Notes under the pieces: generated by a model
The model's input: the letters and a program-made list of their open reading frames with translations, nothing else
Told to the model about the DNA's origin: nothing
Database searches by the model: none
Part shown: one piece after another, positions 1,796 to 59,632 of the stretch
How positions within the stretch are numbered: the stretch's first letter is position 1
Layout of the letters: the number at the start of each line of letters is the position of its first letter
Made by a program: the position numbers and the translations under genes
From: a virus
Reading direction: 5' to 3' (one strand)
Length of the DNA stretch: 59,632 nucleotides
Virus record (IMG/VR): IMGVR_UViG_3300037308_000149
Coordinates: 1-59,632 of that record

Positions 1796-4700
1796 TCACT
1801 CCAACGAGACGCTCTCATCGTGAACACCAATCCAATCCTCGTCTGGTTCGTACACCCCGATGTGCTCACTACTTGTAGTGTACCGCCCCGACAGCTCAAT
1901 CGCCCATCGGTTGTACAGCAGAACAGCAATCGGCATGGCCTGGTCTGTCTCAGCGGAAGTCCAAACCATTGTTGCCCCAGGACGGATGAGCTGACTAGCG
2001 GAATCAACCTCCGCCGCAAGGCCAATGGCCCGAACCTTGAGCCGGCCAACAATGAAGGCTGTATCGCTCTCCAGGGCCTGCCCGATGGACACCTTCCTCA
2101 TCGACCCCACCATCAGAGCCACATCCAGCTCCTGGGCCATAGAAAGGGTTCGGGTCTTGTTCCGCGTCAACCCTCCGGCAGAGTCTGTTTCAGAGGCCAT
2201 GCCGATGGAGCGGACCTTCTTTCTGGTGATGAACTGAGCAGAATCGCTCTCTGCTGCTTGCCCAATCGGGAACTCGTTGGCGTGGCCAATGCTGAATGCC
2301 GAGTCTGTCTCTGTTGCGTCACCCACCAAGCGATGCTTCGGAGACCAAGCAACAGCATACGACGTATCGACCTCTGCCGCAAAGCCAAGCACAACACGCC
2401 TGACCAACCTATGCGCTGTATCCGTCTCGAGGGCCTGCCCAATGACGACAGTGCGGCGCAACGTGACACCAAAGGACGTATCCGACTCCAGAGCTTGGCC
2501 GATGGCATGTGCAGTGGCATGGAGCAACGCATGCGCTGTGTCGGACTCAACGGCCTGGCCAAGGAGCACAATCTTCTTCCGAAGCAGAGCTGTTGCCGTG
2601 TCTGCTTCTGCAGCCTGGCCAATGGCTGCGGTCTTCAGGCGGGAGATCTGGAAAGCCTCGTCTGTCTCGAGGGTCTGACCGATAAGCCGAGTCCCAGGAG
2701 CCTCAAGCGGGAATGCCGTGTCTGCTTCAGACGCCATTCCCACGAGACGACGAGGGACAAAGGTGACCGTCTGAGACGAATCAACTTCTGACGCAAGGCC
2801 AACCAGCCGACGCTTGGGAGCGTAGATGGCAAGAGCGGTGTCGCTTTCGATTGCCTGGGCCAGATGGAGGACGCGGTAATGCCCGACAGCAAATGCTGAA
2901 TCGGTCTCCACAGCCTGGCCAACGAGCCTGCTGCGCAACGGAGTTGCCGTGAACGCTGTATCAGTCTCTATGGCCAAGCCAACGGCGATCTTCCTGGTCG
3001 GTCGAGCCTCCTGTCCTGTGTCCGCCTCTAGAGCCTGACCGATTGCCTTGGTCCTGAGCGGTGTCGCAGCCCATGCCGTATCTGTCTCGCTGGCTTGCCC
3101 AACGGCAACCAGTTTCGTCTTGAGAACGGTGACGCCAAACGCCGTGTCCGTCTCTTGCGCTTGCGCGGTGTAGATTCGGTTGGGGCTCTCTGTGATGCCA
3201 AATGCCGTGTCCGTTTCTGTTGCTTGCCCGACGAGCTTGAACTTGGGCAACACCAGGGTGTGGGCCGTATCCGTCTCCAACGCCTGCGCCACAGGAACGA
3301 TGGATGGAGACAGATCGCTCTTGCGCTTCGGCGTCACAACCTGCGCGGTGTCTGCCTCTGACGACTGGCCCAGAGGGAACGCTCTTGCGTGGCCAACAGA
3401 GAAGGCTGTGTTCGTCTCCGTGGCCTGGCCCAAGGCGATGAAGTAGCGACGAATTGCCGTGATGGGCTGCGCTTCATCCGTCTCAAGAATCTGGTTCACC
3501 GGAATAGTGCGCAACGGAGGAGTAGCCTTGCCTGTATCCGTCTCTGTGACCATGCCGATGGCGTAGGTCCGCAGAGGCGTGACCGGCTGCGCCGTATCAA
3601 CCTCTTCTGCAAGGCCGATGGGATTGCCGCCAAGGAAGATTTGGAAGGCAGTGTCCGTTTCAGTTGCCAACCCCACGGCCACGATCTTTGGGATGATGAT
3701 GGCAGCTGCTGTGTCCTGCTCAGACGCTTGCCCCACAAGGCGACGAAGGTCGTATGTGACAGGCTGCGCCGTGTCTGTTTCGGACGACATCGAGACAAGA
3801 CGATGCTTTGGAGCCCAAGCCATTGGCTGGGCTGTGTCCGCCTCTACCGTCAGACCAACCAGCCGTCGCTCTTCAACCCCAACAGAGAACGCCGTATCTG
3901 TCTCAGTTGCTTGGCCAACATACACACGGTTCGGGTTCTCTGTGATTGGGAACGCTGTGTCTGCTTCTGACGTCAGACCAAGCATTCGGTGCTTCGGAGC
4001 CCATGCCGTGCCTTGGGCCGTATCGGCCTCTGACGCCTGACCAATTGCTTTCTGCTTCTTGATGAGCAGCGGCTGTGCAATGTCCGCCTCAATTGCCTGA
4101 CCGATTGACCTCTGTCGGTTGGGTGTCGCAGGCCAAGCAATGTCCGCCTCAATTGCCTGACCGATTGACTTGTTCTTCAGCCTCGTGATGGCGGTAGCAG
4201 TATCTGTCTCTGTCGCCAAGCCAACCGCCAGAGCCTTCGCGTGGGTGATGCTCGTGGCCGTGTCTGTTTCGGTTGCCATGCCAATGAGGCGCGTCTTGGG
4301 GATGGTGATCGCTTGCGCGGTATCTGTCTCCGTAGCCTGGAGAACATCCTCAACCAACGCAGACAAGATTGAGATCTCGCCATACGACAGAACGCCATTG
4401 TTGTCCCAGAGGTACGCGATCTTGGTGCCGTTTCTGTCGTACACCGTAGCATGGACCAGACCAGTGGTCACGTTGTTCTGCAGCTCTTCTTCGCTCCCTG
4501 TCCACGGGGCAATATCATGCCACAGATCTGTTGTAGCATCATCCACAAACAAAGCATGCAGAGTTGTGCCCGCCACCACCAGAGCAAATCGTCCCTCTGT
4601 GCTGTACACAGCATTCTCAACGGTGGTACTGCTAACATCGTCTGTTTGGGTCCATGTTGGCACATCAGCAGAGACGGCGGTCATGATGGAGAGAGCATCC

Positions 4701-6706
4701 GGGACGTTGTTGATGTAAAGAACCGCGAGCTTTGTGTCAGAACCATCCACATACGAGACAGGATGGCAATGCATTCCCTTGCTTGAGTTTCCCTGGTCTA
4801 GTTGCTGGCTCGAGCCTTGTCCTGCTGTGATGTGATGGAGCTGATCGCCGTTCTGGTTGAAGAAGACATGGATACGACTAGACGATCCGACGACAACAGA
4901 TGGCCGCGTGAGGAGCTGGCCTTCAACCAGCTTGAGTGAGAAATCGTATGACCAATCCCCATTACTGTCTCTGGTAGAGTACAAGAGCCAGCTTGTCATT
5001 GGATCGCCGTTGTCACTGGCACAATACACCACGACATGGTAGCCACTTAGATAAGCAACATCCGTTCCGATGGAAGGGTCCCATTCAGGCCCAAGGTCGC
5101 TCGCATCCTCGGCGGTGCCAAAGGACTCTGTGGTTGTATCATAACGAACAAACTGGATCTGGATACCTCCATACACTAAGTCAATATATGAACCAACGAC
5201 CACGCTGGATAGATGACGACCTACGCCGGACGCTCCTGTGTAGTGAGAGGCCATCTTGGACCATGTGCCGGTCGGATCTGACGCTCTGAACACAGAGACG
5301 TAGTTCCCGTCTTGGCCCTCAAGCACAGCATAGAAGTATGAACCGATCTTGTACGGACCTTGCCGGCCATTGCTGCTGCCGAGCTTGCCATTCGTGAAGA
5401 TGAACGTCCTAGAGGGAGTTGTGATTCGAGCGGTGTCAGTCTCCAGAACCTGTCCAACCGTAACAACCTTCTGTACAATTGGGGTGATGTTCTGCGCTGT
5501 ATCCGATTCTGTTGCCTGTCCAACCGCGATGTACTTCGGGAAGGAGAGGGTCTGGGTGAAGGTGATGAAGGAATCACCAGATGCACCCGCAGCCCCGGCA
5601 TAGTAGAGAGTTGCAGTGTAACTGGTTGCCATGCCCCCGTTGTAATCGTCAATGTAGACCCGCACACGAATCCGGGAGCCCACTGGCACAGAGTAATCGT
5701 CACCAGAGACAACGAACTCATTTGAACCCTCAGATGTAGACAACACATACGCATGGGGTGTCTTCGACCAGACAACAGGGTTCGCCCCGCTCGCATCACA
5801 GACAGCAATCTCAAGAACAGGCCTTACTTTAGCAAGGCTGTTGCTCTCCAATGCTCGGAGCTTCACCCACACTGCGCCCGTCAAGGTGAATGCGGCAACC
5901 TGATTCGAGAACCACTCCAAGTAGTTCCCACCAGCCCCAGCCGTCCACAACAACGCATTGGTGGGGCCTGCGACAGTGTTCACGGCCTTGCTCGTCGCGC
6001 CTGCGCCTCGTGACCTACTCAGGAGCTTGGCGTCGTAGGAAGCTCCGTTCGGATCGACCTCTGCAGCACTGTCCGTCAGATAGAGCGACGTGCCTGCGGG
6101 CTGGCTCGTGATGAACGAGAACGTCTCATTGAACTCGATGTACGAGTCACCAACAGCAGCCTGAGTATCCCCGTTGAAGTAGAACGTGCCGGTGTAGCCC
6201 GTGACCATCGTGTTCGCATCGTTCAGGGCCACACGAATACGAAGACGATCGCCCTTGTTGAGAGCGATTGACGCTGGGTCCGCCGTCCAGTTCTGTGCAG
6301 CGGCTGCAGAGTATGGGAGCTCCGAGCCCTTCTCAGAGTTGATGATGGTCGTGAGAGAACCGTCCGGTGCAAGCCGCTCGATGACACACTGGATACCAGT
6401 GTTGGCCGACATGCTGCTCTCAACGGCCCACAAATTGAACGTGATGAGCCCGTCAATGGTCACATCTTGGCCGAGAGGCGGTGAAAGCCATTCAAGCGGA
6501 TAGGTTCCGTCTGTGACCTCAACACCATTGGTAGCACCAGAGACCGTGTTGGCCGCAGCACTTACGTAGGCACTGCCCCTGCTATTGCTGAGCAACATCT
6601 GAGACCACCACGACGCATTGCCGTTCAACTTCGCGTCGTTGTTCACACGACCGTATGATGTGTAACTGCTGGCCACGCCGTTTTGGAAGTACAGGCGAGT
6701 TGCCAT
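1796..6706 (-). CDS. Giant repeat protein (1636 aa from the ATG at 6706). It has two paralogous N-terminal ~190-aa domains, a propeller-like core, and about 40 C-terminal ~20-aa repeats. Putative fibre or adhesin.
   Basis: Uninterrupted 4.9-kb ORF. The ATG at 6706 overlaps the upstream stop as TAATG. Repeat units include IGQATETDTAF, VGLATETDTAT and IGQALESDTAF. Asp-box-like turns SDPTGTW and RDSNGDW are present. Confidence 0.85.
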   Translation of the reverse strand: MATRLYFQNGVASSYTSYGRVNNDAKLNGNASWWSQMLLSNSRGSAYVSAAANTVSGATNGVEVTDGTYPLEWLSPPLGQDVTIDGLITFNLWAVESSMSANTGIQCVIERLAPDGSLTTIINSEKGSELPYSAAAAQNWTADPASIALNKGDRLRIRVALNDANTMVTGYTGTFYFNGDTQAAVGDSYIEFNETFSFITSQPAGTSLYLTDSAAEVDPNGASYDAKLLSRSRGAGATSKAVNTVAGPTNALLWTAGAGGNYLEWFSNQVAAFTLTGAVWVKLRALESNSLAKVRPVLEIAVCDASGANPVVWSKTPHAYVLSTSEGSNEFVVSGDDYSVPVGSRIRVRVYIDDYNGGMATSYTATLYYAGAAGASGDSFITFTQTLSFPKYIAVGQATESDTAQNITPIVQKVVTVGQVLETDTARITTPSRTFIFTNGKLGSSNGRQGPYKIGSYFYAVLEGQDGNYVSVFRASDPTGTWSKMASHYTGASGVGRHLSSVVVGSYIDLVYGGIQIQFVRYDTTTESFGTAEDASDLGPEWDPSIGTDVAYLSGYHVVVYCASDNGDPMTSWLLYSTRDSNGDWSYDFSLKLVEGQLLTRPSVVVGSSSRIHVFFNQNGDQLHHITAGQGSSQQLDQGNSSKGMHCHPVSYVDGSDTKLAVLYINNVPDALSIMTAVSADVPTWTQTDDVSSTTVENAVYSTEGRFALVVAGTTLHALFVDDATTDLWHDIAPWTGSEEELQNNVTTGLVHATVYDRNGTKIAYLWDNNGVLSYGEISILSALVEDVLQATETDTAQAITIPKTRLIGMATETDTATSITHAKALAVGLATETDTATAITRLKNKSIGQAIEADIAWPATPNRQRSIGQAIEADIAQPLLIKKQKAIGQASEADTAQGTAWAPKHRMLGLTSEADTAFPITENPNRVYVGQATETDTAFSVGVEERRLVGLTVEADTAQPMAWAPKHRLVSMSSETDTAQPVTYDLRRLVGQASEQDTAAAIIIPKIVAVGLATETDTAFQIFLGGNPIGLAEEVDTAQPVTPLRTYAIGMVTETDTGKATPPLRTIPVNQILETDEAQPITAIRRYFIALGQATETNTAFSVGHARAFPLGQSSEADTAQVVTPKRKSDLSPSIVPVAQALETDTAHTLVLPKFKLVGQATETDTAFGITESPNRIYTAQAQETDTAFGVTVLKTKLVAVGQASETDTAWAATPLRTKAIGQALEADTGQEARPTRKIAVGLAIETDTAFTATPLRSRLVGQAVETDSAFAVGHYRVLHLAQAIESDTALAIYAPKRRLVGLASEVDSSQTVTFVPRRLVGMASEADTAFPLEAPGTRLIGQTLETDEAFQISRLKTAAIGQAAEADTATALLRKKIVLLGQAVESDTAHALLHATAHAIGQALESDTSFGVTLRRTVVIGQALETDTAHRLVRRVVLGFAAEVDTSYAVAWSPKHRLVGDATETDSAFSIGHANEFPIGQAAESDSAQFITRKKVRSIGMASETDSAGGLTRNKTRTLSMAQELDVALMVGSMRKVSIGQALESDTAFIVGRLKVRAIGLAAEVDSASQLIRPGATMVWTSAETDQAMPIAVLLYNRWAIELSGRYTTSSEHIGVYEPDEDWIGVHDESVSLE
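1940..4345 (-). repeat. Protein-level tandem array: about 40 units of 18-22 codons built on G-x-A-x-E-x-D-T-A
   Basis: I listed 40 consecutive units in the translated ORF. Codons differ between units, so the DNA copies are diverged. Confidence 0.8.
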
Positions 6707-6933
6707 TATGGCCTCACCCACCTATGCCATGGCCTGCGGTGCGGTGCAGGCGCATTGAGATCTCTGATCCCAGGCCATCCGTTGATACGGAACCATATCC
6801 GCTTCCAGAGAGGCGTCTGAAGCGTATCAAATCTCTGGTCATGGTCTGACACCATACGCTCCATCTGCTCAACCCTGACAGTCAACGAGTTGAGTTGCTG
6901 TTCAGCCTCCTCACGGGAACGGATCTTGACCAC
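6706..6933 (-). CDS. Hypothetical small protein (coiled-coil-like N-terminus)
   Basis: GTG start at 6933, directly after the upstream stop. REEAEQQLNSLTVRVEQMERMV is heptad-like. Confidence 0.45.
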   Translation of the reverse strand: MVKIRSREEAEQQLNSLTVRVEQMERMVSDHDQRFDTLQTPLWKRIWFRINGWPGIRDLNAPAPHRRPWHRWVRP

Positions 6934-10428: not shown

Positions 10429-10536
10429 CTACTTTCTGCGAAGACCAAAGACAGTCCAAGCCACAAGGACTCCGATGAATGCTCCGGCCGCAGACCAGAG
10501 GAAATACTGTGTGGACTCAACCATCCCCATCACCAT
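10429..10536 (-). CDS. Very small single-TM protein; start uncertain (10524-10536)
   Basis: MVMGMVESTQYFLWSAAGAFIGVLVAWTVFGLRRK. The start codons overlap the end of the TerS-like gene. Confidence 0.35.
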   Translation of the reverse strand: MVMGMVESTQYFLWSAAGAFIGVLVAWTVFGLRRK

Positions 10537-11119
10537 CGACGACCTCTCCTTCGATGATGTCCCCCTCTGTGAGTTCTGGAACATCAGCTGCCTGTCCATC
10601 ATGGCCAATGATAGCATTGGCAACCACCTTCTGCCATGGCGCTTCGGCTACAGTGACATCCATCCTTTCGATCGGCTTGCCCAGCACCCGGTCATAGAGC
10701 ATCTCAATCGCCCGGAGCTGGGTGCTGGTGATGAACTCCGGGTTGATCTTCTTGATGACCTCCATGTGCTTCTCGACTGCATACTTCAGCTCAGCAACGA
10801 ACGTGTGCTGGGCCTTGGCCATCATTCGTCGCGCCAGCTCCTGGTGGATGTCGATCGGAACAACGTGCGGCACACGGCCTCCCACACGCCTCCCGTTCTT
10901 GTCATAGTTGTACCGAGCACCACGGATGAGTTCCTCATCTGTCCATTCGGAGAGGTCTTCCTTGCCTTCCATCATGCGGACGACGTTGCGCCCCACCTTG
11001 ACGAGACCCTCGCCACTCTTCCACTTGTACACGGTGGACTTGGCCGTCTTGCTCTGTGGTCCAGACCTGCGCTGCTGCATGATGGTGGTCTTGTCGCTCG
11101 GTCGACGTCTACCGGCCAT
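10517..11119 (-). CDS. Possible terminase small subunit or DNA-binding protein
   Basis: The ATG at 11119 is preceded by GGGAGGG. The 200-aa product has a basic N-terminus, a helical middle (ELIRGARY..., IDIHQELARRMMAKA) and an acidic tail. The function call rests on general resemblance only. Confidence 0.4.
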   Translation of the reverse strand: MAGRRRPSDKTTIMQQRRSGPQSKTAKSTVYKWKSGEGLVKVGRNVVRMMEGKEDLSEWTDEELIRGARYNYDKNGRRVGGRVPHVVPIDIHQELARRMMAKAQHTFVAELKYAVEKHMEVIKKINPEFITSTQLRAIEMLYDRVLGKPIERMDVTVAEAPWQKVVANAIIGHDGQAADVPELTEGDIIEGEVVDGDGDG

Positions 11120-11216
11120 CAGCCCTCCCGATAGATGATGCGGTGCGCCCGAGGACCCCACCATGGGGCCCAACGATTGGGATCGAGATGGTCTATCCGG
11201 ACGCACCGCACCACGA

Positions 11217-11405
11217 TCACTCCTCGGCCAACACCATGTGATCGTCGGAGACGCCGAGGCGACGCATCGCCTTTTGGGCATCCTCAACGCTCTTGTATCC
11301 CTCGCCACCATCGGCGATGATCTGGCGATTCTTGAAGTCACGGATCCTGAAACGCCACTCGCCAGCAGCGTCCCTGTAATACTCTCCGACGTTATAGGTC
11401 TCCAT
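11217..11405 (-). CDS. DUF1508 (YegP-like) domain protein
   Basis: The ATG at 11405 is preceded by GGAGGGGATGAGGAAG. YYRDAAGEWRFRIRDFKNRQIIADGGEGYKSVEDAQKAM matches my recollection of the YegP repeat consensus. Confidence 0.6.
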   Translation of the reverse strand: METYNVGEYYRDAAGEWRFRIRDFKNRQIIADGGEGYKSVEDAQKAMRRLGVSDDHMVLAEE

Positions 11406-53690: not shown

Positions 53691-54923
53691 CTACCACTCG
53701 TACCCAGATGGCACGGTGTACGAAGCACCAGCGTCGATGAACATCACGACGCCGGCACCGCGCTGCCGGATCCCGGTCCCGAACCCACGCTGGTAGTACG
53801 AATCCACCAGTGGGTAGTCGGGCCGCTGACCCTTCACAAGACGCAGTCCGCGAAGGCTTGCGTTGGCGTGCTCTCGGACGCCCACCAGGTTGGCAGCGTT
53901 CTCCTCGCCACCGCTGGCAAAGCCGAGCATGTAGCCAGCAGGGATGAGGTCCTCCTCGACGATGAGCCATGGGCCGTACCGACCCTCGATAGGGAGGCCA
54001 CGGAACGAGGAAGGAGGCGCAGCACCAGGGCGCTCCTGCGAGGCAGCGATGTCCATGGTGGTCCACGCCCAGGCCGGGACACCGGCCGCAGCGATGAAGT
54101 CGTACAGATCGCCGCCGTCGGTGCTGAAGCCGCGGATCGTGTTCATCTGAGCGCTGTTCACGAGCAGGATGAGCGCAGATCCGTTCTGCCATCCGTATCC
54201 GTGGTGCTTGAGGTGGGCTTCCATATCCTCCAGGTCATCGCTGACGACCGTCGCCCCACCACTCACCAGGAAGTGGGTGTGAGGAGCGGTGTGGATCGTG
54301 TTCTTGTACGCTGGGGGAACGGTGCTGTCTCCGTTGTAGATCGGGAACACGTTGTAGTTGTTCCCGGTGATCGTGGCGGTCCGCGTGCTGTCGTTGAACA
54401 CCTGCTTGAACACTTCGCGGAACTGGTTGCGGTTGTCCGCCTCCAGGATCATGTTGTTCAGCGCATCCACCTGGTCGGCATTGTTCTCTGCCAGGAACTT
54501 CCAGGTGAACCGCATCCCGATGTCCCACCACTTGAACGAGTAGGCCAGGGAGAAGTATGCCGGCAACTCGGCACGCACGCCGACCGGAACACCGAACTCC
54601 GAAGCCTCCTCGAAGTCGACCGTGTTGCCGCCCTGGTAGACGTCCTCGATGACTTGCGACACCGGGAACACCAGATTCGACAACAGACGATCGCGCTGGG
54701 AGTTGTACATCGCCAACGCAGCCCGGAACGCAGCCCAGATCTCGTTGAGATCGCGGCCGTCCGAGGTCTGGGTGACGATGTCCCCAATCTGGTTGTAGCC
54801 TTGCGCCCCACCCTCGATGCTGGGGTAGATGCCAAGGCTTCTGAGGTCCTGCAGTGCGCGAGGATCGATCGCCGATGACGGGGCGATGAGCCGCTCACGC
54901 TTGGCAACGTGGAGTCGCTCCAT
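53691..54923 (-). CDS. Major capsid protein
   Basis: 410 aa, directly after the scaffold and decoration-like genes. Its start overlaps the upstream stop. Confidence 0.8.
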   Translation of the reverse strand: MERLHVAKRERLIAPSSAIDPRALQDLRSLGIYPSIEGGAQGYNQIGDIVTQTSDGRDLNEIWAAFRAALAMYNSQRDRLLSNLVFPVSQVIEDVYQGGNTVDFEEASEFGVPVGVRAELPAYFSLAYSFKWWDIGMRFTWKFLAENNADQVDALNNMILEADNRNQFREVFKQVFNDSTRTATITGNNYNVFPIYNGDSTVPPAYKNTIHTAPHTHFLVSGGATVVSDDLEDMEAHLKHHGYGWQNGSALILLVNSAQMNTIRGFSTDGGDLYDFIAAAGVPAWAWTTMDIAASQERPGAAPPSSFRGLPIEGRYGPWLIVEEDLIPAGYMLGFASGGEENAANLVGVREHANASLRGLRLVKGQRPDYPLVDSYYQRGFGTGIRQRGAGVVMFIDAGASYTVPSGYEW

Positions 54924-55294
54924 CAGCTCGCCACCGCCTCTCTACCCAAACGCACGATGAGGCGCGTGGCCTCAACCGTGAACCCCACTCGGGTGTCTCC
55001 GGTCACGTCCAGAGCTCCGGTGACGGCGTCTGCGAAGATGGGAGTGCCTGCTGTAAGGTTCTCCATCTCCACGATCTCACCGTCGGTCATGACATCGACC
55101 ACCTGGCCAGCCAACTTGTTCTCCTTGACCAGGATCACGATGCCAGCGATACCGGAGTTGCCGACTCCTGGAACGACCTTGCCCGACGTGTTGAGCCCAA
55201 CTCCTACGGGCTCACCGTCGTCAGCCGTCCAGTCAGCAGCAAGGACAGCACGGAACCCACCGCTGATGGGGTCGTACTTGTCAAACCTTGCCAT
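54923..55294 (-). CDS. Possible head decoration protein (DUF2190-like)
   Basis: 123-aa Gly/Val-rich ORF between the scaffold and the capsid gene. The RBS is CAGGAGGCTCGT. Confidence 0.4.
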   Translation of the reverse strand: MARFDKYDPISGGFRAVLAADWTADDGEPVGVGLNTSGKVVPGVGNSGIAGIVILVKENKLAGQVVDVMTDGEIVEMENLTAGTPIFADAVTGALDVTGDTRVGFTVEATRLIVRLGREAVAS

Positions 55295-55416: not shown

Positions 55417-56106
55417 TCATGTGCTCCGGTGCCGCGCAAGGTGCGGCATGCGCTTGACGAGCTCCTCCGGAGTGTACCCAGATGTCTTGTCTTTCCTCTT
55501 CTTCGGAGGAGAAGCACTGCGCTTCTGCTCCTCCTCATCGTCATCGTCTCCGGGCTCCTCGAAGAGCTGAGGGTACTCCTTCTCCAGAGCCACAACCAGC
55601 TCCTCCAGATTGCTGTCTCCGTCTTCATCGATCTCAAGATCGTCAGACAGCAGCTTCATGGCGAACTTGCGGCCCTTGGGAGGCAAGGCAGAGATCTTCT
55701 CGTGGGACAGCATCAGGATCGTCGCATCACGCTCCGCCACAGCTGTCTCCAGCTCAGCAATGCGCCTCTCCTTGCCGACGAGCTCCTCAGACTTTCTCTC
55801 CTCGTCGGTCTTCTCTGCGTCCTCTTTCTCCTTCAGCTTCTTCTCGAGCTCTGCCTTCTCTCGCTCCAGACGCTTGGCCTTTTTGGCGTGACGAGATTTC
55901 TCGTCCTCAAGCGCCTTGATCTTCGCAGCAGGATCCTTGATCGGGTCGTCGGCCTCCTGCTCTTCTTCTTCCTCTTCTTCCTGCTCTTCGTCTTCATGCC
56001 CTTCCTCTTCATCACCAGAGCCTCCGGCAATAAGCGGGAAGAACCGTCCATCTGGCATCTGCCAGCCTTGCACACCGTTGCGCAGCAACAGGATTGGTTC
56101 TGTCAT
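55417..56106 (-). CDS. Scaffolding protein
   Basis: The ATG at 56106 is preceded by GCGAGGAAGCAGAA. The product is highly charged and coiled-coil-like (KIKALEDEKSRHAKKAKRLEREKAELEKKLKEKE), in the position before the capsid gene. Confidence 0.7.
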   Translation of the reverse strand: MTEPILLLRNGVQGWQMPDGRFFPLIAGGSGDEEEGHEDEEQEEEEEEEQEADDPIKDPAAKIKALEDEKSRHAKKAKRLEREKAELEKKLKEKEDAEKTDEERKSEELVGKERRIAELETAVAERDATILMLSHEKISALPPKGRKFAMKLLSDDLEIDEDGDSNLEELVVALEKEYPQLFEEPGDDDDEEEQKRSASPPKKRKDKTSGYTPEELVKRMPHLARHRST

Positions 56107-56221
56107 TTCTGCTTCCTCGCTTCCTCTCTCTTGCGTCGTTGTTCCTCGTCCTTCTTTGGGTCCACCACGACCCGTATGTCCTCCTTCCTTCTCCATTTGA
56201 ATCGGCTCGCCCGCTGTTTAT

Positions 56222-56842
56222 TCATGTCAACATCTCCAAGATCACACGCTTGGCTTCTTTGTCCACGTACAGAACTCGCATACGCTGACCTCGAGCAAAC
56301 AACATCTCATACTCGTTCCCAAAGACAGAGAACCAATCTCCCATATAGGCACCATTTGCACCTTGCGGCACAAAGATCTCCATGACCCATTCGTCTCCAC
56401 TTCGGAATGCTTCGGCTGTACGGATGTCCAAAGAGGTAGATAAGAATCCATCATCAGCAACAACCGCTCCTACATCAAATGCTTCATCCCACCAACCGCC
56501 GCGATACACCATCACATCTTGCGGCACTATTGCTCCTCGCAAAGCACCATCGATCTGAGCAAGAGCAATGTCAGGGTTGCTACCGATCTGAGCAGCCGCC
56601 CTGCTTTCACCAATGAGCCCTCTGGCATAGTCATTGATGGTGTGGCTTTGCGCTACATACGTTTTGATGCCCTCTCGGCCGTTGGCACTCAACCCGGCCT
56701 TCCAGTCCTCATATGCAGACCGACCCCACTCGTCCGCCTCTGACGGAGTTGTCCCAAAGTCTGCGGCCCTTTCCACGCGACTAGGATCCGCAGACGGCGA
56801 CATCCCTTCTGTACTACACACCCGCACAGTCGTACTCCCCAT
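56222..56842 (-). CDS. ADP-ribosyltransferase-like protein (R-S-E class)
   Basis: It has IKTYVAQSHTINDYARG, VMVYRGG (Arg), GFLSTSL (S-T-S) and GNEYEMLF (E-x-E). It overlaps the MuF-like gene by 29 nt. Confidence 0.75.
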   Translation of the reverse strand: MGSTTVRVCSTEGMSPSADPSRVERAADFGTTPSEADEWGRSAYEDWKAGLSANGREGIKTYVAQSHTINDYARGLIGESRAAAQIGSNPDIALAQIDGALRGAIVPQDVMVYRGGWWDEAFDVGAVVADDGFLSTSLDIRTAEAFRSGDEWVMEIFVPQGANGAYMGDWFSVFGNEYEMLFARGQRMRVLYVDKEAKRVILEMLT

Positions 56843-57701
56843 TCAAGAGCTGCTCCTGAAACTCCTCCTGCGTAGGTGTGATGGGAACCAAGTAGCAGAA
56901 GCAGTTGGGATGCGGCGAATCAGGGACCTCATCCGAAGGGAACACGCCGTCCCCCAGCCCATACTCATCAATCTCGGCCAAGGCATCACAGTCGTCGTCA
57001 CCAGGGTGTGAACCAGACAGGGTCCATTGGACTCCGGTGACATATGGCGACTCAGCGTATGTCATCGCGCTGGTGGTTCGGAAGGCATTGTTCAGCTCGG
57101 TCCTCCCGAGGCGCTGCGCTGCATACTTCGCGCCACCAGGGGTGCTGGGGTTGATGTAGCCCACAACAGCATCAGCGATCTCTCGAGCAGATTGCCCAAG
57201 TGCGATGCCGTTGTTGACAATCCGATCAATCGTCCCCCGAGACAGAGCCTCATTCCTGTACACAGACGGGCTGAGATTGACACCGTTGAGAACCCGAGAC
57301 CTCATGTCAGCGAACGTCGCTGCTGCCGAATGAAGCATTGAGTCCCGCAAGATGGCCGCATACTCTGGAGTGGCCTTGGACAACAGGTACAGCATTCGTC
57401 GTTGAGCATTGACGGCCATCTGGGTAGATGTTGACAGACCCTGGGTGATGGCGGTAGGAACCTTGCCGCGCCATGTCTCTGCCAGCACCTGATAGATCTG
57501 CTGTTGCCGTTGGATGTACATGGCGCGACGAGCCATTGCTCCAACACCCTTGCCGGGCAAGCCTCCGATGATCTTCTCCAGATCCTTGGCGGCCTGGAGC
57601 ATGATGCGGGCAATCTCGTCATCTGTCTGCTGCATGAGCCGCATCAGTCCCCGCTGGCTCTGCTTGGAGAAAGACTTAGACCAGTTGCTCGGTGCCGCCA
57701 C
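56814..57701 (-). CDS. MuF / SPP1 gp7-like head morphogenesis (minor capsid) protein
   Basis: GTG start at 57701. The C-terminal PHPNCFCYLVP motif is typical of the Phage_Mu_F family. It follows the portal gene. Confidence 0.8.
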   Translation of the reverse strand: MAAPSNWSKSFSKQSQRGLMRLMQQTDDEIARIMLQAAKDLEKIIGGLPGKGVGAMARRAMYIQRQQQIYQVLAETWRGKVPTAITQGLSTSTQMAVNAQRRMLYLLSKATPEYAAILRDSMLHSAAATFADMRSRVLNGVNLSPSVYRNEALSRGTIDRIVNNGIALGQSAREIADAVVGYINPSTPGGAKYAAQRLGRTELNNAFRTTSAMTYAESPYVTGVQWTLSGSHPGDDDCDALAEIDEYGLGDGVFPSDEVPDSPHPNCFCYLVPITPTQEEFQEQLLNGEYDCAGV

Positions 57702-59196
57702 CTGTCACCTCTCCGGCAATCCTTGAAGCGATCGCATCAGCTTGCTGCGCAGCGTATTGGGACTGCTCACTCATGATCTCCGCCATGAGGATGCCCTCTT
57801 CCGTGAATGAGAAGCCGAGCTTCGCCAACATACGGCGAGCCTCAGCCCCAGAGACCAATGGCACCGGCCCTGCCCCGGCCAACGCCACGATCTGGTCGAA
57901 CACTTCCTTCTTGTTCACGGGGAGCTTGTCTCCATACACAGGGCGCCAGCGGATGTCTTCCAACCCCGGCAATCCCTCATACGCCATAAACCACTTGCGG
58001 ATGTCGTAGAGCATCTGGTTCATCACGTCCGTGATGATGAGTTCCTTCTCTTCCATCCGGCTGAGGATTGGGCCCATCCGAAGAGCAAGCGCGATACCGG
58101 ACTCCGCAACGGCCACATCAGCACGCCCTCGTGTGATGTCATTGGCTCCGGTCGTGGCGTCGATCTGGTCATGGAGATACTTCAGGTGGTCAACGTAGGG
58201 CTGCAACGTTCCCACGCCCTGCTCTCTCTTGAACGACTTGCCTGTGGGCAGCTCTACAACATGTCCTGGCGAAACGATCCACGGGATCTCTTCATCGTTC
58301 TCATCCACAGGGCTGCCTGCATCCGTCACCCAGACGCCCAATCCGTCAAGGACCAGGGCGAGCTCCTCATCTGTGATCGCCTGGTTGATGCTGCGCATAA
58401 GGAGCTCAATGCCTCGCATCTCACTTGAGCCCCAACCGAATTGAGCCTCATACACGTTGGGTATGTGGTACACTGGGATTGCATCGATCTCAGGAGGCAA
58501 CGTCATCTCTGGGGCGAGAGTAGCGACCACTGTCTCCTTCATGTCCGTCCCGGGCTGGCCCCACTCATCTGCCTTGCAGATGTACTCTTCGACCGTGATT
58601 GGGCTTGGGCCTCCTGTCGTGATCTGCTTCCGATACACCGTCTTGTGGATGACAGTGTCGCCATTGTCGTTGGTTGTTGGCTCTGCGATGTGGACGGCAA
58701 TGATCCTCGTGATGTCGTCCCCATCGGCGTACTCCGGGAAGTAGTTCGACGGGTCCAGAGGGAAGATGCTCACCCGAGAGCCTTCCGGCCGAGTCGGATC
58801 GGCCCAGATATGCCACAGCCAATCCCCTCGCATCAGTCCGTGCAACTTGTTGGAGGAGAACTTGCTGTAGAACCGCTCTCGGTAGGCGAACTCTGTGAAC
58901 AACAGATCCGCTTCCGTTCTGGCTTCAGGAGTCCCGAACAGGGGATCTGTGATGACCTGCAGCCGAGGCGCCATGAAGCGATGCGCGGTCTCGACCACCT
59001 GTCTTCCACTCGGGATGTGGATGGGTTCGCCTTCCTGTCCCCGCAGGGTGATCTGGAATGCTTCCGGGGATGTCCAGAAGATGGCTTCGTACAGGTCATA
59101 TGCGCCAATCCTCGAACGATCCTCACCTGACAGCCAAGATGGGATGTTGGCTTCCTGGATGAATCTCTCCGCAGAGGCCCAATGGCTAACGAGCAT
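57676..59196 (-). CDS. Portal protein
   Basis: 506 aa, immediately downstream of terL (11-nt overlap). Confidence 0.85.
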   Translation of the reverse strand: MLVSHWASAERFIQEANIPSWLSGEDRSRIGAYDLYEAIFWTSPEAFQITLRGQEGEPIHIPSGRQVVETAHRFMAPRLQVITDPLFGTPEARTEADLLFTEFAYRERFYSKFSSNKLHGLMRGDWLWHIWADPTRPEGSRVSIFPLDPSNYFPEYADGDDITRIIAVHIAEPTTNDNGDTVIHKTVYRKQITTGGPSPITVEEYICKADEWGQPGTDMKETVVATLAPEMTLPPEIDAIPVYHIPNVYEAQFGWGSSEMRGIELLMRSINQAITDEELALVLDGLGVWVTDAGSPVDENDEEIPWIVSPGHVVELPTGKSFKREQGVGTLQPYVDHLKYLHDQIDATTGANDITRGRADVAVAESGIALALRMGPILSRMEEKELIITDVMNQMLYDIRKWFMAYEGLPGLEDIRWRPVYGDKLPVNKKEVFDQIVALAGAGPVPLVSGAEARRMLAKLGFSFTEEGILMAEIMSEQSQYAAQQADAIASRIAGEVTGGGTEQLV

Positions 59197-59632
59197 TTGC
59201 TATCACCGCCCTCCTCACACGCGAACGTCCTCTGGTGGCTGGTCCTTCAGGCCCACCAAAGTATCCGCGGAAGAATCTGCCCAGGGCCTCAGGGCCATGG
59301 TTGTCCTTGTCCAACGGCATCTCCGGTTGAGCTCTGACTGATTCTTCCTTCGTCTCTGGGTATCGGTAGTCCTGCATCTCTCTGATGAGACCTCCGTCGC
59401 CAAGCGGAAGACCAATACATGACCGATCGATGAACAACTTGGGCTTCCGCTTCTCATCAGGGTGGCCCTCACTCTCCCAATCATACTTGAGTTGGTTGCG
59501 GATGAGTTCCAGCCGCCACTTCAGTTCGCCGCCGGTGTCCTTGTTCACCGTCACATGGAGAGCCTTCTCCAGCACCGCTGTCTCTGATGGGTCAGCGGGC
59601 TCAGGAAACAACACGCTGGCATTCCTGGCCCA
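59186..59632 (-). CDS. terL: Terminase large subunit, C-terminal (nuclease) part. It is contiguous with 1..1087 across the 127-bp overlap.
   Basis: It has DKDNHGPEALGRFFRGYFG. The joined ORF is 1087 + 320 = 1407 nt (468 aa). Confidence 0.9.
   Translation of the reverse strand, partial: WARNASVLFPEPADPSETAVLEKALHVTVNKDTGGELKWRLELIRNQLKYDWESEGHPDEKRKPKLFIDRSCIGLPLGDGGLIREMQDYRYPETKEESVRAQPEMPLDKDNHGPEALGRFFRGYFGGPEGPATRGRSRVRRAVIANAR
59506..59632. repeat. Terminal direct repeat copy 2 (identical to 1..127)
   Basis: Read directly. Confidence 0.95.

Follow-up and report, generated by a model that had tools for sequence, protein, structure and literature searches.

How does a toxin-like enzyme enter a phage head when its gene lies beside the gene of a head protein without being fused to it? 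This question is raised by the IMG/VR virus record IMGVR_UViG_3300037308_000149, a whole metagenome contig of a soil phage (59,632 bp, hereafter called the window), in which the head genes lie on the minus strand and an open reading frame (ORF) for a predicted ADP-ribosyltransferase (ART) at positions 56222-56842 directly follows and overlaps the gene of a MuF-like minor head protein. A first-pass annotation of the window had proposed a capsid-delivered ART that modifies a host target at injection, for takeover or anti-defence, and that is made either separately or as a frameshift fusion to MuF. The packaging of ARTs and of MuF-fused toxins in phage heads is an accepted idea which is based almost entirely on computational work, while the entry of a non-fused enzyme into the capsid is not addressed in the searchable literature. 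Descriptions of the MuF polymorphic-toxin pattern are found in Zhang et al. 2012 (PMC3482391), Jamet et al. 2017 (PMC5576092), Jacobs-Sera et al. 2020 and Iyer et al. 2022. It was also proposed that Alt/VIP2 ARTs which are fused to MuF or encoded next to head genes are packaged in the head and injected in a manner similar to T4 Alt (PMC5576092, PMC9503650), and annotated MuF-VIP2 fusion proteins are present in cultured phages of Arthrobacter and Microbacterium (PMC7302621). An ART beside MuF is therefore an arrangement of a known kind, and the earlier interpretation restates a published hypothesis. What appears to be new is that the in-trans arrangement is conserved, with paired cysteines at the protein termini and an adaptor common to the cargos.

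In this study, we analyzed the ART ORF, its junction with the MuF gene and the homologous loci of related phages, which are denoted here by L numbers, with P numbers for fused proteins. The reading which we consider fairly probable from the sequences is that the ART associates with MuF, is packaged in the procapsid, is delivered with the DNA and ADP-ribosylates a host protein. The MuF-associated, capsid-delivered route is suggested by fused homologues in the same slot, by the conserved split within the head operon, and by correlated cysteines in the two proteins.

The ADP-ribosyltransferase ORF

The ORF at 56222-56842 (minus strand) encodes 206 amino acids (aa) when read from ATG 56842 and 201 aa from the probable start codon GTG 56827. 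It matches the Pfam family PF03496 (ADPrib_exo_Tox) with 82.8 bits at a gathering cut-off of 23.4 (E 2.6e-23) and phrog_3895, annotated as 'ADP-ribosyltransferase exoenzyme toxin' (E 7.4e-12). A sequence search of the PDB returned Vip2, CDTa and iota Ia at E 3.5e-15 to about 1e-9; a Listeria ART effector, BECa, Certhrax, C3larvin and Plx2A were also among the matches, which as a whole extended from E 3.5e-15 to 1e-7. In the alignment to Vip2, YRG, STS and ExE of the ORF correspond to YRW, STS and E-K-E, respectively. The R-S-E triad noticed in the first-pass annotation was located in the proposed order, with the catalytic Arg114 in VYRG (56501-56503), S135-T136-S137 in FLSTS (56432-56440), and the catalytic ExE motif E177-Y-E179 in GNEYEMLF (56306-56314), all on the minus strand. 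Also, the Asn/Tyr/Arg-Gly region described upstream of VYRG is present, in the form YVAQSHTINDYARG. In an alignment of 32 sequences comprising the ART and 31 homologues, N70, R74 and R114 are invariant, and S135, T136, E177 and E179 are conserved in at least 90%.

An AlphaFold2 model built on this alignment reached a pLDDT of 93.7 and a pTM of 0.89. Searching the PDB with this model by Foldseek yielded 99 matches at E<=1e-3, and the 50 listed were all ART toxins. The best matches were Vip2 (1qs2), Certhrax, the Lmo0066 ART, Plx2A and C3 (E about 1e-13), and CDTa and iota were also among them (TM-scores of 0.63-0.75, normalised to the query). The ART consists of one catalytic domain, which aligns best with the C-terminal half of Vip2 (residues about 200-395). 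The lack of an ART fold had been named beforehand as a finding that would speak against the proposal; the model has this fold, and the PF03496 match, the PDB sequence matches, the catalytic residues and the predicted structure agree in the assignment of the ORF, at a level that chance would by far not produce. Judged by sequence and model, it is an R-S-E mono-ADP-ribosyltransferase of the Alt/VIP2 (C2/C3-like) clade with intact catalytic residues. By analogy, the ExE motif suggests arginine as acceptor. Among orthologues this motif varies, with E-x-E in the window, L004, L006 and L007, Q-Q-E in L003, and Q-M-E in the fused orthologue P0148 (L002). Such ExE/QxE variation at a specificity-linked motif suggests target diversification inside one phage clade.

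By an exhaustive HMMER search of 1.84 billion representatives, 1148 ART homologues were found at E<=1e-3, from all of which the window ART is strongly diverged. A word-indexed protein search returned the ART itself only, and its profile version five proteins; no strong match of the window ART was found in cultured phages.

The gene preceding the ART (56814-57701, minus strand; 295 aa) had been described as MuF-like. This description is confirmed by its match to phrog_1657, annotated as 'head morphogenesis' (E 3e-39), and to 13 further PHROGs of MuF or head morphogenesis, though a Pfam search gave no match. In the gene calls of the source record both genes are truncated, the ART to 156 aa (start at residue 51) and MuF to 276 aa, and both calls cut off N-terminal residues that are conserved and confidently modelled.

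Start codon, frame and conservation of the split genes

The MuF gene ends with the stop codon TAG at 56816-56814. Counted from ATG 56842, the ART ORF overlaps it by 29 nucleotides (nt) and lies in the +1 frame relative to MuF, and the coordinates thus bear out the overlap and the frame given in the first-pass annotation. The two start codons considered there have to be judged differently. ATG 56803 is unlikely, as it lies downstream of a conserved motif V-C-S/A and would cut it off; ATG 56842 remains an alternative, and GTG 56827 is preferred. This GTG (56825-56827, minus strand) overlaps the codon of MuF Cys292, is preceded by GGGGAG 7 nt upstream, and shortens the overlap with MuF to 14 nt. 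A GTG with GGxGAG at the same distance is also found in L003, L006, L007, L011, L012 and L019, and gene callers begin ART homologues at MVVCS, VAVCS, MAVCS or MAKVC. Starting from the GTG, the ART begins with the peptide M-R-V-C-S-T-E-G. On these sequence features GTG 56827 is the best-supported candidate and probably the start codon of the ART.

To relate the junction to other phages, a set of 87 metagenomic MuF homologues was used. All of them have an invariant HP..D.C and PHP.C.C cluster; the closest show 48-58% identity to the window MuF and are also about 295 aa long, and the MuF of Gordonia phages is about 37% identical. The order of portal gene, MuF gene (285-306 aa), separate PF03496 gene (183-223 aa), ORF of 36-52 aa and scaffold gene is conserved in every clade contig with a readable downstream region, these being independent contigs from different samples. 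This conservation bears directly on the trivial explanation that an assembly or sequencing indel has broken a single MuF-ART gene, for which the metagenomic origin of the contig and a GGGG homopolymer in the overlap could be cited. The same split is present in more than ten independent contigs from JGI, ENA and Logan assemblies, in which MuF ends at the same conserved C-terminal motif. An artefact is thereby effectively refuted, and we assign it a negligible probability.

In more distant homologues, and only there, toxin domains are fused to MuF. P0148 (L002) is 43% identical over the full length of the window MuF, followed by a linker of ~45 aa and then PF03496, and P0211, P0216 and P0233 are further MuF-PF03496 fusions. 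The C-terminal extensions of other MuF relatives are ART-PolyVal, Gln_amidase (a glutamine-deamidase-like papain toxin), DUF3626 with a helix-turn-helix, or unknown domains. The fusion point of these toxin domains corresponds to the position where the separate ART gene of the window starts. When cultured phages were searched for the split, Cys-paired form, only fused forms were found, and a MuF pattern scan of viral contigs gave no confirmed relative. As a separate observation, the MuF homologue at L024:3983-5728 (plus strand) contains an insertion of ~250 aa that starts with Cys inside the PHP.C.C motif and has a weak Intein_splicing match (E 0.004), after which the MuF profile resumes; on this sequence evidence it is probably an intein in the MuF gene.

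The overlapping ORFs and the true fusions among relatives also suggest that recoding could produce all or some of the ART as a MuF-ART fusion, either by a programmed +1 frameshift inside the 29-nt overlap or by a hop in which the peptidyl-tRNA-Cys leaves the Cys codon of MuF and lands on that of the ART, 10 nt downstream. Recoding would yield a junction peptide, for example ...GEYDCSTEGMSPS... or ...NGSTTVRVC..., and a frameshift was one of the two options offered in the first-pass annotation. In actinophages, adjacent MuF and VIP2 genes were flagged as frameshift candidates by PRFect (PMC10885494). The overlap contains a GGGG run, the window junction RNA alone folds moderately better than shuffled sequences (z -2.5), and in all split loci the MuF stop lies between matched Cys codons, as a hop would require. 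An alignment of the ART/MuF junctions of nine clade members points in the other direction. The ART is in the +1 frame in seven of them (window, L003, L006, L007, L011, L012 and L019) and in the +2 frame in L004 and L016 of the same clade, and +2 is also found in other clades; in L008, again of the same clade, the downstream ORF is in +2 and the contig ends before its domain becomes readable. The GGGG run encodes a conserved Gly-Glu of MuF and is replaced by GGAGAG in L007 and L011, and the MuF-frame homology (G-E-Y-D) goes on past it. Also, the codons preceding the MuF stop (GTG/CTG-TAG) are unable to re-pair in the +1 frame. Over the seven +1 junctions no conserved RNA structure was detected (consensus -1.39 kcal/mol), which means that the fold of the window junction is not conserved, and no shared slippery motif was found in the MuF/ART overlaps of the relatives. 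Each downstream ORF keeps its own in-frame start, with a Shine-Dalgarno-like sequence or, in the +2 group, an ATGA/TGATG overlap, and the residues before the Cys are conserved at the protein level (V-x-V-C, I-V-C-P). For a hop, any codon would do, and the use of Cys alone across lineages points to thiol chemistry instead.

The junction alignment speaks against a +1 site at the GGGG run, against stop-codon slippage and against a conserved stimulatory RNA; all three were rejected, and we regard recoding in any form as very improbable; the frameshift fusion is not upheld. Because the frame offset varies, conserved slippery sites and RNA structures are missing, and own starts are present everywhere, separate and translationally coupled initiation of the ART is the model supported by the junction sequences.

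Paired terminal cysteines and the proposed route into the capsid

The MuF tail of the window, ...GEYDCAGV up to the stop, carries Cys292 (codon 56826-56828, minus strand). An AlphaFold2 model of MuF (pLDDT 87.2) shows coil at residues 287-295, with a pLDDT of 57 for the last block; according to this model Cys292 sits on a flexible C-terminal tail. The only Cys of the ART (codon 56816-56818, minus strand) is Cys9 of the 206-aa ORF or Cys4 counted from the GTG, and its codon overlaps the MuF stop. This N-terminal Cys is invariant in the alignment of clade ARTs, and the conserved peptide M-x-V-C-S/A around it has no similarity to anything known. The motif V-C-S/A is under protein-level selection, since synonymous codon changes keep it across different frame offsets to MuF (for example GTG TGT AGT ACA GAA in the window and GTC TGC GCG ACG GAA in L004).

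The MuF cysteine is conserved in a corresponding manner. In split loci of the clade MuF ends with ...G-E-Y-D-C-x(0-4), and a Cys is found within the last 8 residues in all 11 unique sequences of MuFs with a separate ART among the fetched loci. A tail Cys occurs in at least four MuF lineages, with the tail types YDCxxx, GV[VT]C, GTSC and QMGCARA, each directly before the stop. Its association with an additional gene was analyzed by means of a landmark, using the distance from the MuF stop to a conserved post-scaffold gene (phrog_5042 homologues), which was located in 55 loci. For short MuFs with a tail Cys, this distance was 1427-3609 nt in 14 of 15 cases, so that one or more extra genes are present; for short MuFs without a tail Cys it was 719-958 nt in 28 of 28, which leaves room for the scaffold gene only (Fisher p 1.9e-10, uncorrected for phylogeny). 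The exception, L075, has a tail Cys at a distance of 1010 nt and retains a remnant of the cargo N-terminal motif. At L075:517-730 (plus strand), the MuF tail reads ..QMGCERG, the cargo gene is gone, and the remnant VVTCPPSA precedes the scaffold gene; from its sequence this locus looks like a recent cargo deletion. Within the clade of the window, the subclade L014/L015/L017 is without ART and without the Cys, and the junctions of fused MuF homologues have no Cys.

For a test of prediction, four further MuFs were picked solely by their tail Cys. All four are followed by an extra pre-scaffold gene that begins with a Cys-bearing peptide, namely IVCPVP in a GNAT cargo (L088), IVCPIP and IACPLP in two Gln_amidase cargos (L089 and L090), and MKTCSIS in a 797-aa ART protein (L091). 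The cargo Cys lies within the first 2-17 residues. Cysteine is scarce in cargo proteins (0.45%), about half of which have no Cys other than the N-terminal one; these include the window ART and two proteins of >450 aa. In one lineage, cargos with different toxin domains have a common N-terminal adaptor of ~45 aa starting with [IV]-[VA]-C-P. Cargos of a different composition are encoded at L069:4822-6228 and L077:3669-5033 (both plus strand); these consist of an N-terminal Cys peptide, a helix-turn-helix region with weak sigma-70 region 4/AraC-type matches and a C-terminal ART, and each gene is followed by an ORF of 73-80 aa with a C-x-x-C motif. The searchable literature, which is incompletely covered, gave no mention of such a Cys pairing.

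As a tentative explanation of these patterns, MuF may load separate effectors via terminal-Cys coupling, in which the last 1-8 residues of MuF and the first 2-17 residues of the cargo would be joined by a disulfide or metal clasp. It is conceivable, with the same reserve, that this clasp would recreate the junction of fused MuF-toxins post-translationally and then break in the reducing cytoplasm of the host. Possibly, although here too we have more doubt than confidence, the coupling rule would cover a polymorphic cargo family comprising ART, glutamine deamidase-like, GNAT and unknown domains. Other roles of the cysteines were considered and rejected: a lipoprotein lipobox in the cargo (no signal peptide; Cys at positions 2-17), CaaX-like prenylation of the MuF tail (a variable 0 to 6 residues after the Cys), joining by a split intein or by a native-chemical-ligation-type reaction (no room for intein fragments; Cys not residue 1), and ADP-ribosylation of the MuF tail Cys as an acceptor similar to that of G-alpha-i, with a Cys four from the C-terminus (non-ART cargos show the same pairing).

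The ART is followed by a conserved ORF of 40 aa (MNKQRASRFKWRRKEDIRVVVDPKKDE...; 56103-56225, minus strand). L003 and L006 also have its motif RKEDIR[IV]VVDPKKDE, of which weaker forms are seen in L004, L007, L002 and L097. An ORF of 36-52 aa is present after the ART in all readable relatives of the clade and also after the fused ART of L002, and loci without the ART (L015, L017) do not have it. Other lineages have different small ORFs of 54-97 aa in the same slot, and that of L090 matches phrog_3585, 'immunity protein' (E 5.5e-14). Because position and variability match those of the immunity genes of polymorphic toxins (PMC5576092), the 40-aa ORF is a candidate for an immunity or inhibitor protein.

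From these elements the following sequence of events is proposed. The ART would be translated separately from GTG 56827 (or ATG 56842), coupled to the end of MuF translation, and would represent the in-trans 'cargo' version of the MuF-toxin fusions of homologous phages, while the 40-aa ORF product would keep it silent in the producing cell. MuF, as a portal-associated minor head protein, would carry the ART into the procapsid by docking of its tail (Cys292) with the ART peptide, and the docking might be fixed by a disulfide or metal bridge between both cysteines, by which the fused junction would be recreated. After entry into the host together with the DNA, release of the bridge in the reducing cytoplasm would give the free enzyme, which would ADP-ribosylate a host protein early in infection.

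It has to be considered that the ART might not be virion cargo, and instead a late intracellular enzyme that modifies host or phage proteins of the producing cell, similar to T4 ModA and ModB, or a moron toxin directed against eukaryotic grazers, the MuF slot merely tolerating insertions. Standalone PF03496 genes located away from MuF, such as Gordonia phage genes 79/80 and gp2 of cluster A15 (PMC10586128), would agree with this, as would the tandem ARTs after a scaffold-like gene in L095. The latter (L095:372-1634, plus strand) are two PF03496 ARTs of 211 and 207 aa with Gly-rich, Cys-free N-termini (MPSKGSGGGAAG...), which come after an Ala/Gln-rich scaffold-like gene and not after MuF; this arrangement may be a different loading route. 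With regard to the window ART, a role outside the virion appears unlikely to us, as its slot is exactly where homologues fuse a toxin to MuF and its gene is chained to head genes by overlaps at both ends. Furthermore, MuF-tail and cargo cysteines together with a common adaptor on unrelated toxins are hard to explain without physical interaction, and ART homologues not adjoining MuF have no N-terminal Cys.

Even if the ART is packaged with MuF, its role could be interbacterial killing or kin discrimination with immunity, as in the model of Jamet et al., and not takeover or anti-defence; cells without the small immunity protein would be intoxicated on injection. In line with this role, a conserved carrier is combined with polymorphic cargo domains (ART, Gln_amidase, GNAT), a small, variable ORF comes after each of these, and one such ORF matches an immunity PHROG. 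Also in line with it are the ExE/QxE variation of orthologous ARTs and the small downstream ORFs of most published MuF toxins (PMC5576092). The basis of that model, however, is temperate phages and prophages, whose immunity is expressed in lysogens, whereas the ORFs scanned in the window include no integrase or repressor, the phage has its own replication machinery, and the small ORF lies inside a late operon. We therefore consider this role improbable.

For delivery of the ART with MuF, which remains the preferred reading, several points have to be set on the negative side. The cytoplasm is reducing and disulfides are not normally formed there, so non-covalent docking of the terminal peptides must come first. 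The association of the tail Cys with an extra gene comes from ~45 non-redundant loci of one MuF subfamily and ignores phylogeny, and the split state is confined to about four MuF lineages. The 40-aa ORF matches no Pfam or PHROG family, and 40 aa is unusually small for an immunity protein. Besides the ART itself, the HMMER search of 1.84 billion representatives gave no homologue of >41% identity, and no match to the head region was obtained in a near-identity DNA search of 50,697 phage records. Finally, MuF toxins have been reported almost only in temperate phages (PMC5576092), in contrast to the DNA polymerase, primase and helicase of this phage and the absence of an integrase from its scanned ORFs.

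The surrounding operon and known systems

Upstream of MuF, the contig end cuts the gene of the large terminase subunit, of which the C-terminal part is encoded at 59186-59614 in the same position as in relatives. This fragment is 50% identical (E 6e-30) to the C-terminus of a 466-aa protein of L089, which itself has a weak Terminase_6N match. The gene of the portal protein (57676-59196; 506 aa; phrog_64, E 2e-22) is directly followed by the MuF gene. Downstream of the ART and the small ORF lies the gene of a scaffold-like acidic coiled-coil protein (55417-56106; 229 aa), and PF06810 Phage_scaffold is found at the homologous position in relatives. The ORF is open to 56196, and the annotated version (55417-56196) is probably too long; the start is placed at ATG 56106 because of the ATGA overlap with the stop of the small ORF and because the homologous N-terminus (..GW.MPDGRFFPLIAGG) begins there. 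A small head protein (54923-55294; phrog_5042), which served as the downstream landmark, and the major head protein (53691-54923; phrog_3990, E 2.1e-117) follow, all on the minus strand. The ART stop overlaps the start of the small ORF, and the stop of the small ORF overlaps ATG 56106, in both cases by ATGA. No promoter-like sites were found in the head region, and the two terminator-like sites found are both on the opposite strand. Because of the stop-start overlaps at both ends of the ART and small ORF and the lack of a promoter-like site, the head genes including the ART form a late operon whose members are chained by translation. Between the portal and capsid genes, no gene of a prohead protease was recognised.

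Elsewhere, the contig encodes a DNA polymerase, a primase/helicase, a helicase, a Sak4-like protein and an exonuclease. No integrase or repressor match was obtained among the 20 larger ORFs scanned on this contig, which is cut within the terminase gene, and no tRNAs were found on it. A very large ORF of 1641 aa is located at 1796-6721 (minus strand), and its sole match is phrog_14065 of unknown function (E 1e-48). A further ORF at 10517-11341 (minus strand) has a weak small-terminase-like match (phrog_10899, E 2.8e-7), while the fragment of the large terminase is at the other contig end, ~48 kb away; this arrangement would agree with a genome that is circular or circularly permuted and was cut in the terminase region.

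If the proposed coupling is true, a C-terminal Cys on a short MuF predicts a hidden cargo gene and provides annotators who seek injected phage effectors of unknown fold with a simple sequence signature. The coupling would, in addition, point to a means of loading foreign proteins into phage heads. Split systems make the loading of a non-fused enzyme testable.

Among the known systems, the enzymes of binary toxins (Vip2, C2I, iota Ia, CDTa) and the C3 exoenzymes have the same fold and the same constellation of R, S-T-S and E-x-E as the window ART. Binary-toxin enzymes comprise two ART-like domains (about 400 aa), act with a pore-forming partner and target eukaryotic actin, whereas the window ART is a single domain of 201-206 aa encoded in a phage head operon and lacks this two-domain architecture. 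T4 Alt is, like the window ART, an R-S-E mono-ADP-ribosyltransferase of the Alt/VIP2 clade, and it travels in the phage head and is injected together with the DNA. An N-terminal capsid-targeting sequence directs the loading of Alt on the scaffolding core, and Alt is trimmed by the prohead protease; the protein of about 70 kDa belongs to a myovirus virion, and no MuF is involved. By analogy, the window ART would resemble T4 Alt in its proposed function only. Two further systems are compared as analogies without homology to that of the window. In the type VI secretion system, the same carrier is either fused to a toxin ('specialised' effectors) or binds a separate toxin by a short adaptor ('cargo' effectors). 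In AB toxins, the enzyme stays attached to its carrier by a disulfide, which is then reduced in the cytosol of the target, as is hypothesized for the disulfide in the window.

Closer to the window are the MuF-VIP2 proteins of actinophages (Microbacterium phages Percival, Goodman, Johann and PermaG; Arthrobacter phages Amyev, Cassia and others; PMC7302621), which have the same two domains in the same slot between the portal and the scaffold/capsid genes. These phages, with soil Actinobacteria as hosts, contain the nearest cultured MuF relatives, and their ARTs are about 31-33% identical to the related cargo ART of L077. Unlike the split genes of the window, their MuF-VIP2 proteins are single polypeptides of 670-975 aa.

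The MuF polymorphic toxins (PMC5576092, PMC3482391), such as the EFV MuF-ART toxin of an Enterococcus faecalis V583 prophage, likewise have MuF directly after the portal. Like the window they feature a PF03496-type ART, a small ORF (<150 aa) after the toxin and polymorphic domains in relatives, and carriage in the head with delivery together with the DNA was proposed for them, the same route as proposed here. In contrast, the toxin of the window is a separate polypeptide in another frame and lacks the defining fusion, its MuF ends in a short Cys tail and the toxin begins with a conserved Cys peptide, and no temperate features were recognised in the window ORFs scanned. Judged from its sequence context, the window ART is not a MuF polymorphic toxin in the strict sense, but it is like one, with the same carrier, the same slot and a small ORF downstream.

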